A DNA stretch of 64,000 bases, from NCBI GenBank assembly GCA_023409435.1, contig JAEYHP010000156.1, forward strand, positions 2,959 through 66,958, written 5' to 3'. This DNA comes from Bacillota bacterium (lineage in GTDB: Bacteria; Bacillota; Clostridia; Christensenellales; CAG-138). This document shows, one piece after another, positions 15,427-16,423 of this stretch (within the stretch, counting starts at the first letter, position 1; the number at the start of each line of letters is the position of its first letter). The notes beneath the pieces were generated by a model. It was given only the letters and a program-made list of their open reading frames with translations. It did not search any database and was not told the origin of the DNA. Position numbers and translations under genes: made by a program.

Positions 15427-15909
15427 ATGAAAAAAGCATTTCTTGCACCGATCATACTTGTGCTGTTCGCGCTCCTTTTTTCCTCCTGCGCCGTGCAGCC
15501 CACGGAGCAGACGCCCGCGCCTGCGCCGGAGCTTATACCCATCTATGCGAACCGGGTCGCGGAGGGCGCCTATGCGATCGAGGTCTTATCAAGTTCTTCG
15601 ATGTTTCGTGTGGTGGACGCGCAGCTTACCGTAAAGGACGGAGCCATGACCTGCGTAATGACCATGAGCGGCCAAGGCTACGGCAAGCTGTACATGGGCA
15701 CGGGCGAACAGGCGCTTGCCGATACGGAGGATCATACTATCCCGTCCGTTATCAACGCCGAGGGTGCCGTTACCTTTGAGGTGCCCGTGGAGGCGCTCGA
15801 CATGGATATCGACTGCGCCGCGTGGAGCATCAAAAAGGAATCGTGGTACGACCGCGTACTCGTGTTCCAATCCACGCTGATTCCCGCGGAAGCGATTGTG
15901 GCGGAATAA
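15427..15909 (+). CDS. Uncharacterised lipoprotein (160 aa), paralogue of the next gene
   Basis: The ATG at 15427 follows an AGAGGA RBS. The N-terminus is MKKAFLAPIILVLFALLFSSC (lipobox). I recognise no family. Confidence 0.7.
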   Translation: MKKAFLAPIILVLFALLFSSCAVQPTEQTPAPAPELIPIYANRVAEGAYAIEVLSSSSMFRVVDAQLTVKDGAMTCVMTMSGQGYGKLYMGTGEQALADTEDHTIPSVINAEGAVTFEVPVEALDMDIDCAAWSIKKESWYDRVLVFQSTLIPAEAIVAE

Positions 15910-15913
15910 GCCT

Positions 15914-16423
15914 ATGCGGAAACTGGGCTGCCTGGCTTTCGCCTTCTTCCTTCTGCTCGCGCCCCTCTGTGCGCTGGCCGCCGAATTGCCCGCCGGCGGG
16001 CAATATACCGTTGCGGCCATTCTGAGCGGCGGCTCGGGCAGGGTGAGCGTCGCTTCGCCCGCCGAATTGACGATCCAAGACGGCGCCGCCACGGCTACAG
16101 TGGTATGGTCCAGCCCCTATTACGAGTACATGCTCGTAAACGGCGAAACCTATTACCCCGTGCAGGAGGAAGGGAATTCAACCTTCGAAATCCCTGTAAC
16201 GCTCGATACGGACATCCCCTTTTCCGCGCAGACAATCGCCATGAGCGAGCCGCATGTGATCGAATACACATTGAGATTCGATTCCGTAACGCTGGAGCCG
16301 CTGAACGGCGGCACGGCGGATGTTCTTCTTTGGATTCTCCTAACCCTCGCCATTGCACTTGCGGGTGCGGTTTTTCTTATAGTACGGCGAGGGAAGCGCG
16401 CGAAAAAAGGACAAACGCCATGA
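15914..16423 (+). CDS. Uncharacterised secreted protein (169 aa) with a C-terminal TM anchor, paralogue of the previous gene
   Basis: It has the signal peptide MRKLGCLAFAFFLLLAPLCALA/AE. The C-terminus is VLLWILLTLAIALAGAVFLIV followed by RRGKRAKK. The stop overlaps the start of the substrate-binding-protein gene (ATGA at 16420-16423). Confidence 0.7.
   Translation: MRKLGCLAFAFFLLLAPLCALAAELPAGGQYTVAAILSGGSGRVSVASPAELTIQDGAATATVVWSSPYYEYMLVNGETYYPVQEEGNSTFEIPVTLDTDIPFSAQTIAMSEPHVIEYTLRFDSVTLEPLNGGTADVLLWILLTLAIALAGAVFLIVRRGKRAKKGQTP

Follow-up and report, generated by a model that had tools for sequence, protein, structure and literature searches.

The NEAT heme relays of Gram-positive bacteria (IsdH, IsdB, IsdA, and IsdC with IsdEF; IsdX1 and IsdX2; Listeria Hbp2; and Streptococcus Shp with HtsABC) are built from small surface-anchored domains with a beta-sandwich fold, which occur singly, in tandem, or as multirepeat giants and are encoded beside an importer of the Peripla_BP_2/FecCD/ATP-binding cassette (ABC) type. 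These features recur in two small surface proteins, here termed A and B, and their families; A and B are encoded by adjacent genes (15427 to 16423) in a 64,000-nucleotide stretch of a Bacillota contig (JAEYHP010000156.1), the whole of which is referred to below as the window, and their modeled folds match those of the heme relays with Foldseek TM scores of 0.59 to 0.73. Their genes stand between one for an exported CbiK-type cobaltochelatase and those for an ABC importer. In place of the YxxxY motif of the heme relays, S-W-Y-D-R stands in A and H-x-x-x-Y in B, and the B loop that would correspond to the “lip” of IsdX1 is about 6 residues shorter. The heme relays are anchored by sortase and controlled by Fur, whereas A and B are anchored by a lipobox or a C-terminal transmembrane segment, their cassette stands under a B12 riboswitch, and they further differ in having a chelatase partner and a tie to corrin biosynthesis. 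To our knowledge, the NEAT fold is known only as a heme carrier; given the cobalamin riboswitch and the link to corrin biosynthesis, the likely ligand shifts away from heme, and the ligand of A and B is probably a different one.

Exported CbiK proteins have been described in Desulfovibrio vulgaris (2XVX) and in Porphyromonas gingivalis (FetB/IhtB, 9B86, with IhtABCDE). As in the window, these are class II chelatases that retain their active site, and a binding-protein-dependent ABC importer is encoded alongside them. In vitro, FetB was shown to insert Co and Mn into a porphyrin (PMC13065792), and P. gingivalis has been reported to lack precorrin-2 synthesis (PMC6461909). Both systems are Gram negative, with a TonB-dependent receptor where the locus in the window has NEAT-like proteins, and both have been discussed for heme, iron, and Mn-porphyrin; a link to entry into the corrin pathway has not been shown for them. 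In Bacteroides, the surface lipoproteins BtuG, BtuH, and BtuJ pass a cobalt tetrapyrrole to an importer (BtuB/BtuFCD) under B12 riboswitch control, the same strategy as that proposed here. Their folds (beta-propeller, DUF4465, and others) are unrelated to those of A and B, and they bind finished cobamides in B12 auxotrophs (PMC13616437), whereas the cassette described below was found only where the late biosynthetic pathway is present.

“Tetrapyrrole precursor salvagers,” mainly host-associated Firmicutes, have late cbi genes and lack early tetrapyrrole genes (Shelton et al. 2019; PMC6461909), and “precorrin-2 auxotrophs” are a recognized category (Rodionov et al., as cited in PMC8123684). Most of the genomes that carry the cassette match this category. 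There the class was defined from gene content, with dependence on 5-aminolevulinic acid (ALA) alone verified (PMC6461909), and neither an uptake system nor the export of the chelatase was described (PMC6461909, PMC8123684). A full-text literature search returned no paper linking NEAT-like proteins, exported CbiK, and corrin-precursor salvage, and no description of the present system or of a transporter for the salvaged precursor. On balance, the genomic evidence presented below makes it somewhat probable that A and B constitute a tetrapyrrole relay from surface CbiK to the BtuFCD-like importer, by which scavenged sirohydrochlorin would be loaded with cobalt outside the cell and then imported.

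Two paralogous surface proteins with a predicted NEAT fold

Protein A begins with a lipoprotein signal (MKKAFLAPIILVLFALLFSSC) whose lipobox reads LLFSSC. Protein B consists of a cleavable signal peptide (CALAA/ELPAGG), a beta-rich domain, a C-terminal helix (residues 135 to 164), and the tail RRGKRAKK; its start codon is ATG, with an in-frame TTG upstream at 15896. Pairwise BLASTP aligned the two proteins with 33% identity across 94 amino acids (E = 2e-7), and comparison of the A-family and B-family profiles, made after the natural A-B and A-A fusion proteins had been taken out of the A alignment, gave a probability of 99.2% (E = 6e-20) over 123 columns. These scores indicate that the pair is real and that A and B are, judged by sequence, true paralogues whose similarity goes beyond chance. 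The first-pass annotation, made from the letters of the window, had described a paralogous pair of this kind with differing topologies, and its coordinates, its quoted motifs (found letter for letter), its account of both termini, and its flanking genes (exported CbiK upstream and the Peripla_BP_2/FecCD/ABC_tran importer downstream) all held.

A word-indexed search retrieved 427 relatives of A and 3,994 of B, and an exhaustive profile search placed the B family in 1,648 clusters at 50% identity. No domain model is dedicated to the B family, whose carriers include abundant human gut commensals. Family alignments showed strong conservation, distinct in each family, of S-M-F within SSSSMF, of SGxGYxKLYMGTG, and of AAWSIxKExWYDRVLVF in A and of LSGGSGR, WSSPYYEYM, GNSTFEIPV, and TxAMSEPHxIxYTLRFD in B. 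Some B relatives of 832 to 1,605 amino acids (P0242, P0243, P0251, P0265, and others) carry between three and five B-like repeats and have no further recognizable Pfam domain; in this they resemble multi-NEAT receptors.

AlphaFold2 models built with the family alignments were confident, with predicted local distance difference test scores of about 98 for the domain of A and about 96 for that of B. When both models were compared with the PDB by Foldseek, all hits at E values of 1e-3 or lower were NEAT domains with bound heme. The model of A matched 4myp_A (E = 3e-4; target TM score, 0.59) and 3sik (TM score, 0.62), with 2q7a and 2o6p also among the top hits, and by protein its matches were Hbp2-N2, IsdX1, Shp, IsdA, and IsdC. 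The model of B matched IsdX1 (3sik) with an E value of 6e-5, a TM score of 0.71 to 0.73, and a root mean square deviation of 2.5 to 2.7 Å; its other matches were IsdX2-N5, Hbp2, and IsdH-N3, with 4h8q and 4myp listed. In the models, both proteins form the superposable eight-stranded immunoglobulin-like beta-sandwich that characterizes NEAT domains. The structural comparison suggested by the first-pass annotation returned confident models and only NEAT domains, and its guess of hemophore-like or NEAT-like proteins stood at the level of the fold.

At the level of sequence, that guess was borne out only in part. Neither A nor B matched the Pfam NEAT model (PF05031; gathering score, 32.8 bits) even at an E value of 1, and searches of Pfam, NCBIfam, and PDB sequences gave no match to either protein. 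Sequence searches of PDB chains with A, B, the A profile, and the A-B fusion protein of Faecalibacterium produced nothing usable, and the best PDB sequence match of the B profile was IsdX1 (E = 0.2). Pfam NEAT was the commonest subthreshold match among relatives of B (21 of 66; best E = 0.0026); the Faecalibacterium A-B fusion scored 32.1 bits, just under the cut-off, and a single relative with three repeats (P0244) exceeded it, with 55 bits.

The YxxxY motif on the last strand of NEAT domains supplies the axial-ligand Tyr and a hydrogen-bonding Tyr, and its absence from A and B, already remarked on in the first-pass annotation, was confirmed. The last strand of A (139 to 148) reads SWYDRVLVFQ, with W140, Y141, D142, and R143 invariant, and that of B reads H114-V-I-E-Y118, with H114 and Y118 invariant and an invariant M110 preceding them; the register of these residues relative to NEAT domains was inferred from strand positions and profile coordinates rather than from a residue-level structural alignment. 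In NEAT domains, the lip is a 3-10 helix with Ser, Met, and Tyr residues that covers the ligand pocket; at the loop that would be its equivalent, A has the invariant S58-M59-F60 and B has LSGGSGR, aligned with DKDESSRMNRYF of IsdX1 across two gaps totaling 6 residues in the weak profile match cited above. Because YxxxY is absent and the putative lip of B is shorter than that of IsdX1, the A/B family is assigned, on the strength of the models, to a divergent branch of NEAT-fold proteins and kept apart from ordinary NEAT heme receptors. The description of the pair as an unrecognized family thus holds for the sequence databases, and the predicted fold is not a new one.

A conserved six-gene cassette and its partner order

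The CbiK encoded in the window had its best PDB matches in Salmonella enterica CbiK (1qgo; 4e-54), FetB (9b86), and the periplasmic CbiK of D. vulgaris (2xvx), and it keeps the motifs QPTH, GHGTEH, TVES, and AGDHANNDMA together with the lipobox AAGC. An alignment with these three proteins showed that the QPTH and GHG motifs retain their His and that TVES retains its Glu; the metal-binding roles assigned to these residues are those of the S. enterica enzyme. Its domain, its export signal, and its His and Glu residues indicate that the protein belongs to the exported CbiK type (CbiK-P/FetB).

Conservation of the locus was surveyed in the best-scoring 80 of more than 600 loci encoding B relatives in GTDB species genomes. 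The 80 loci came from Faecalibacterium, Gemmiger, Blautia, many Lachnospiraceae and Oscillospiraceae, Christensenellaceae, Eggerthellaceae, Propionibacteriaceae, Gaiellales, and one Chloroflexi metagenome-assembled genome (MAG). A cassette of six genes, encoding exported CbiK, A, B, a substrate-binding protein (SBP), a permease, and an ATPase, recurred behind a cobalamin riboswitch. All six genes were present in 65 of the 80 loci, across Clostridia and Actinobacteria, and the shortfalls were mostly due to contig ends; A was found in 78 loci, and CbiK and the SBP were found in 77 each. The Rfam cobalamin riboswitch lay immediately upstream of the cassette in all nine loci tested, and an nhmmer profile of the riboswitch gave an upstream match in 67 of the 80 loci, with 9 of the 13 misses falling on contigs cut at the 5' side. 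Each complete cassette CbiK inspected carried a lipoprotein or secretory signal.

In-frame fusions, defined as two domains within one stop-free reading frame, joined A to B in 53 loci, CbiK to A in 6, A to CbiK in 3, CbiK to A and B in 1, and B to the SBP in 5; no A-SBP or B-CbiK fusion was present in the 80 loci. In four loci with the alternative order B-SBP-permease-ATPase-CbiK-A, B remained with the SBP and A remained with CbiK. The fusion pattern and this alternative order support a chain CbiK-A-B-SBP, which matches the gene order in the window, and point to CbiK and A, A and B, and B and the SBP as the likely partners. The relay proposed in the first-pass annotation gains support from this conserved gene order and from the fusions.

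Many exported CbiKs (L021, 5938 to 7281; L017; L035; L077; L004; and others) share an N-terminal extension (about 70 amino acids, conserved) with the motif LIDAIYVQERT..C..AK.AWD.LT..QKELVEGE.A.P.YFGRDTGDAS, which separates the chelatase fold from a low-complexity linker and is not seen in the CbiK of the window. In two loci, tandem CbiK-CbiK fusions head the cassette (L014, 5644 to 7395, and L063, 5262 to 7373; frames of 584 and 704 amino acids, respectively). Three MAGs labeled Prevotella or Bacteroides (L019, L039, and L049) contain a cassette of Firmicute type, with lipoprotein and transmembrane anchors; the probable reason is misbinning or mislabeling rather than real presence in Bacteroidota.

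Association with corrin-ring synthesis and a candidate salvage route

CbiD, which marks the anaerobic pathway to the corrin ring, was present in 45 of 45 cassette genomes, compared with 51 of 250 genomes drawn evenly from the class (P ~ 1e-26). A second, cytoplasmic-size CbiK or a true CbiX was found in 14 of the 45 cassette genomes and in 41 of 43 genomes that have CbiD but no cassette (P = 1e-10); in the remaining cassette genomes, as in the assembly from which the window comes, the exported CbiK was the only class II chelatase, and the window's CbiK was the only CbiK or CbiX in its own assembly. HemC, which is needed for making any tetrapyrrole, occurred in 14 of 46 cassette genomes, mainly those retaining a cytoplasmic chelatase (P = 2e-4), and 27 of 45 lacked both HemC and a second chelatase. 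CbiM, a component of the cobalt importer, occurred in 7 of the 46 genomes with the cassette and in 31 of the 43 controls (P = 5e-8).

The operon context pointed in the same direction. CbiD was encoded within 8 kb of the cassette in 39 loci. In 14 loci, the importer ATPase was fused in frame to CbiD, with further cbi genes following (L017, L018, L020, L021, L026, L039, L042, L044 to L046, L048, L049, L051, and L054). CbiD is cobalt-precorrin-5B methyltransferase, and the fusion of a transporter ATPase to a pathway enzyme is unusual. In the example from L021 (10795 to 12762), ABC_tran covers residues 23 to 172 and CbiD covers residues 285 to 551, and CbiL, CbiF, CbiG, and CbiH come next. In a complete Christensenellaceae chromosome (locus L007), CbiL directly follows the importer ATPase, and in Faecalibacterium it follows the ATPase-CbiD fusion. 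CbiL uses the product of CbiK, Co-sirohydrochlorin, as its substrate. In the cassette genomes that match the salvager category, CbiL is, where examined, the first cytoplasmic enzyme of the pathway, and the sole chelatase lies outside the membrane.

Genes for the early steps were scarce. HemB, HemC, and CobA were not encoded near the cassette in any of the 80 loci, and HemA, HemB, HemC, HemD, SUMT (CobA), and another chelatase were not found in 2.8 Mb of the complete 3.67-Mb Christensenellaceae chromosome (76%; the extent searched for CobA, HemA, HemB, and HemD, with HemC, CbiK, CbiX, and CbiM searched across the entire genome) or in the window's own assembly, which is 82.5% complete. In a Blautia genome that belongs to the HemC-positive minority, the expected hemA/hemC-cobA-hemD/hemB/hemL/cytoplasmic cbiK cluster was present.

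These patterns bear on the possibility that the cassette scavenges finished corrinoids, A and B being surface binders of B12 or cobinamide (a Gram-positive counterpart of BtuG, BtuH, and BtuJ) that feed a BtuFCD importer, with the exported CbiK as merely an extra corrinoid-binding protein; we regard both this function and this role of CbiK as unlikely. A finished-B12 scavenger would be expected to be at least equally common in the 80% of the class without ring synthesis, where the need for uptake would be greatest, so the restriction of the cassette to CbiD-positive genomes is a misfit. The cassette, moreover, replaces the cytoplasmic chelatase instead of adding to it, the catalytic residues of CbiK are fully retained, and CbiL or CbiD is adjacent or fused to the importer. 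The NEAT pocket fits a flat macrocycle and not a corrinoid with its nucleotide loop. Scavenging of this kind would accord with the cobalamin riboswitch at the cassette, with the multiprotein extracellular cobamide relays of Bacteroides (PMC13616437, PMC6143338), and with an importer of BtuF/BtuC/BtuD type whose ATPase has “corrinoid ABC transporter ATPase” as its best NCBIfam match; that match, at 203 bits, is far under the family cut-off of 537 bits. The importer genes had no curated equivalog match to the B12-specific BtuFCD components and gave just generic Peripla_BP_2, FecCD, and ABC_tran matches, and A and B had no Pfam or NCBIfam match to the domain models of BtuG, BtuH, BtuJ/DUF4465, or DUF4430.

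Elsewhere in the genome of the window, the only other cobalamin riboswitch (contig C15, 1723 to 1914; locus L082, 1501 to 2717) precedes two genes, one for a protein that is anchored in the membrane and has a transcobalamin-like DUF4430 domain (E = 5e-10) and one for a polytopic membrane protein of 182 amino acids without a Pfam match. These two probably form a separate candidate system for the uptake of finished cobamides, which also speaks against such a role for the cassette. A B12-uptake relay had been the first reading of the locus and was downgraded in view of the CbiD found in every cassette genome and the lack of another chelatase, HemC, and CbiM in most of them.

Isd/Iht-type acquisition of heme or iron, in which A and B would bind heme and the exported CbiK would remove or exchange its metal, is highly improbable. 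The NEAT fold of A and B would suit it, as would the case of P. gingivalis, where a heme-related locus that includes an ABC importer encodes the exported CbiK homologue IhtB/FetB (PMC13065792, PMC12094164); FetB, however, had no dechelatase activity on hemin (PMC13065792). The regulator upstream is a cobalamin riboswitch and not an iron regulator, the cassette lies within or beside cbi operons and is strictly tied to CbiD, and both proteins lack YxxxY. The riboswitch and the cbi surroundings were the grounds for rejecting heme uptake.

In the alternative of a “cobaltophore” cycle, the cell would release its own sirohydrochlorin, have it loaded with scarce Co2+ by surface CbiK, and import it again, replacing CbiMNQO. 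The anticorrelation of the cassette with CbiM is what such a cycle would predict, and the cycle could apply to the minority of about one-third of cassette genomes that have HemC, among them an isolate (G029) with HemC whose only chelatase is an exported A-CbiK fusion. As a general explanation it is quite improbable: two-thirds of the cassette genomes lack HemC and so are unable to make a tetrapyrrole, which makes the cycle inapplicable there, the cassette encodes no exporter, and most of the HemC-positive genomes retain a cytoplasmic CbiK too.

The simplest account is the uptake of a scavenged precursor through A and B. A and B are very probably NEAT-fold carriers acting between the exported CbiK and the importer. 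Genomic context gives about an even chance that their cargo is sirohydrochlorin or Co-sirohydrochlorin. We infer that A and B bind a tetrapyrrole, and likewise infer its identity, the direction of its transfer, and the service of the exported CbiK as the chelatase of the pathway.

The proposed route would run as follows. The whole cassette would be switched off by B12 through the riboswitch. A tetrapyrrole without metal would be captured from the environment at the cell surface, the likeliest being sirohydrochlorin supplied by neighboring microbes; sirohydrochlorin is oxidized precorrin-2 and forms when precorrin-2 oxidizes. A would act as the partner of the exported CbiK, which would insert Co2+ outside the membrane, and the Co-sirohydrochlorin would be handed via B, as the partner of the SBP, to that protein. 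The ABC transporter would then import the cobalt complex, which would enter the cytoplasmic pathway at CbiL and proceed to CbiD. B may be suited to the metallated product, since it has invariant His, Tyr, and Met residues at the inferred positions of NEAT metal ligands, and the Ser-rich putative lip and invariant W-Y-D-R of A would suit a polycarboxylate free base.

Cobalt insertion is the committed step of anaerobic B12 synthesis. It is possible, at just short of an even chance, that this step is extracytoplasmic in many gut Clostridia (Faecalibacterium, Gemmiger, Christensenellaceae, and many Lachnospiraceae), which would make them sirohydrochlorin-dependent B12 producers using an A-CbiK-B-SBP route.

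Several observations weigh against this proposal. A search of the window's own assembly with two queries (tblastn and phmmer on all open reading frames) detected no CbiL, and CbiE, CbiF, and CbiH were the only tetrapyrrole methylases found there; since the assembly is incomplete, the absence of CbiL and SUMT from it is not proven. CbiL was also missing from the cbi cluster in eight loci of Faecalibacterium/Gemmiger type. About one-third of the cassette genomes have HemC together with a cytoplasmic CbiK and so have no need for a salvage route, the isolate G029 has HemC with an exported chelatase only, and CbiM is kept in the seven genomes counted above, the window's own included. B12 riboswitches also govern transporters of finished corrinoids, the importer is BtuFCD-like, and A and B lack the YxxxY of NEAT domains. 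We know of no documented natural pool of extracellular sirohydrochlorin. As to sampling, the genomes surveyed are mostly MAGs whose completeness is not established, related genomes in the phyletic counts are nonindependent samples, and B-family members beyond the best-scoring 80 loci, being more distant, may have other contexts.

The cassette is a concrete candidate for the uptake route of tetrapyrrole precursor salvagers. If the route operates as proposed, one step of B12 synthesis moves to the cell surface, and producers need no early tetrapyrrole synthesis, cytoplasmic chelatase, or cobalt importer, which changes both the set of gut bacteria that count as B12 producers and the metabolite with which they are cross-fed. 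NEAT domains would then gain a second natural ligand class besides heme. The new element is the recruitment of the NEAT fold to a B12-regulated tetrapyrrole route tied to biosynthesis, the fold itself being known, and salvage at the level of the whole system, if confirmed, would be considerably more novel than the protein pair alone. The cassette can be tested in cultured strains, and family members are carried by abundant human gut commensals.

Other features of the locus

The features of the locus are collected in Table 1. The hairpin between the aptamer and the first gene of the cassette is likely its expression platform. Peripla_BP_2 proteins are a class that binds heme, siderophores, or B12, and the SBP of the window had no relative among PDB sequences at E values below 1e-3. 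The C-terminal extension of the ATPase puts the protein in the length class of the archaeal-type “corrinoid ABC transporter ATPase” model.

Table 1. Features in and around the cassette of the window
Feature	Position	Strand	Basis or detail
Divergent 14-gene cobamide operon (cbiD operon)	587..13813	-	
AdoCbl-II riboswitch before the divergent cbiD operon	13943..14022	-	36.9 bits (gathering score, 36.5)
Promoter-like site TTGACA-18-TATGCT before the riboswitch	14074..14103	+	Consensus scan only
Cobalamin riboswitch aptamer, RF00174	14115..14298	+	61.9 bits (gathering score, 31.5); E = 8e-14
Intrinsic-terminator-like hairpin and T-run	14389..14411	+	10-bp stem with 8 GC pairs; TTTTTGTATT tail
Exported lipoprotein, CbiK-type cobaltochelatase; signal MKHLKITLTLVLALAFVMPVAAGC	14483..15352	+	PF06180, E = 8e-86
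Protein A, lipoprotein with one NEAT-like domain	15427..15909	+	160 amino acids; AlphaFold2 model and Foldseek
Protein B, signal peptide, one NEAT-like domain, and C-terminal transmembrane anchor	15914..16423	+	169 amino acids
Lipoprotein SBP, Peripla_BP_2	16420..17562	+	PF01497, E = 4e-30
FecCD/BtuC-type permease	17576..18601	+	PF01032, E = 5e-82
ABC ATPase with C-terminal extension of ~120 amino acids	18598..19716	+	ABC_tran

The divergent operon encodes CbiD, CbiF, CbiG, CbiH, CbiJ, CbiET, CbiA, CobT, CobU, CobS, CobC, CbiB, CobD, and CbiP, and no chelatase, CbiL, CbiC, or hem gene was found within it. Its leader contains a terminator-like hairpin (13842 to 13817) and also a promoter-like site. 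Farther along the window, the segment from 58001 to 62000 has a GC fraction of 0.43, compared with about 0.53 to 0.58 in neighboring segments, and may be a foreign insert.

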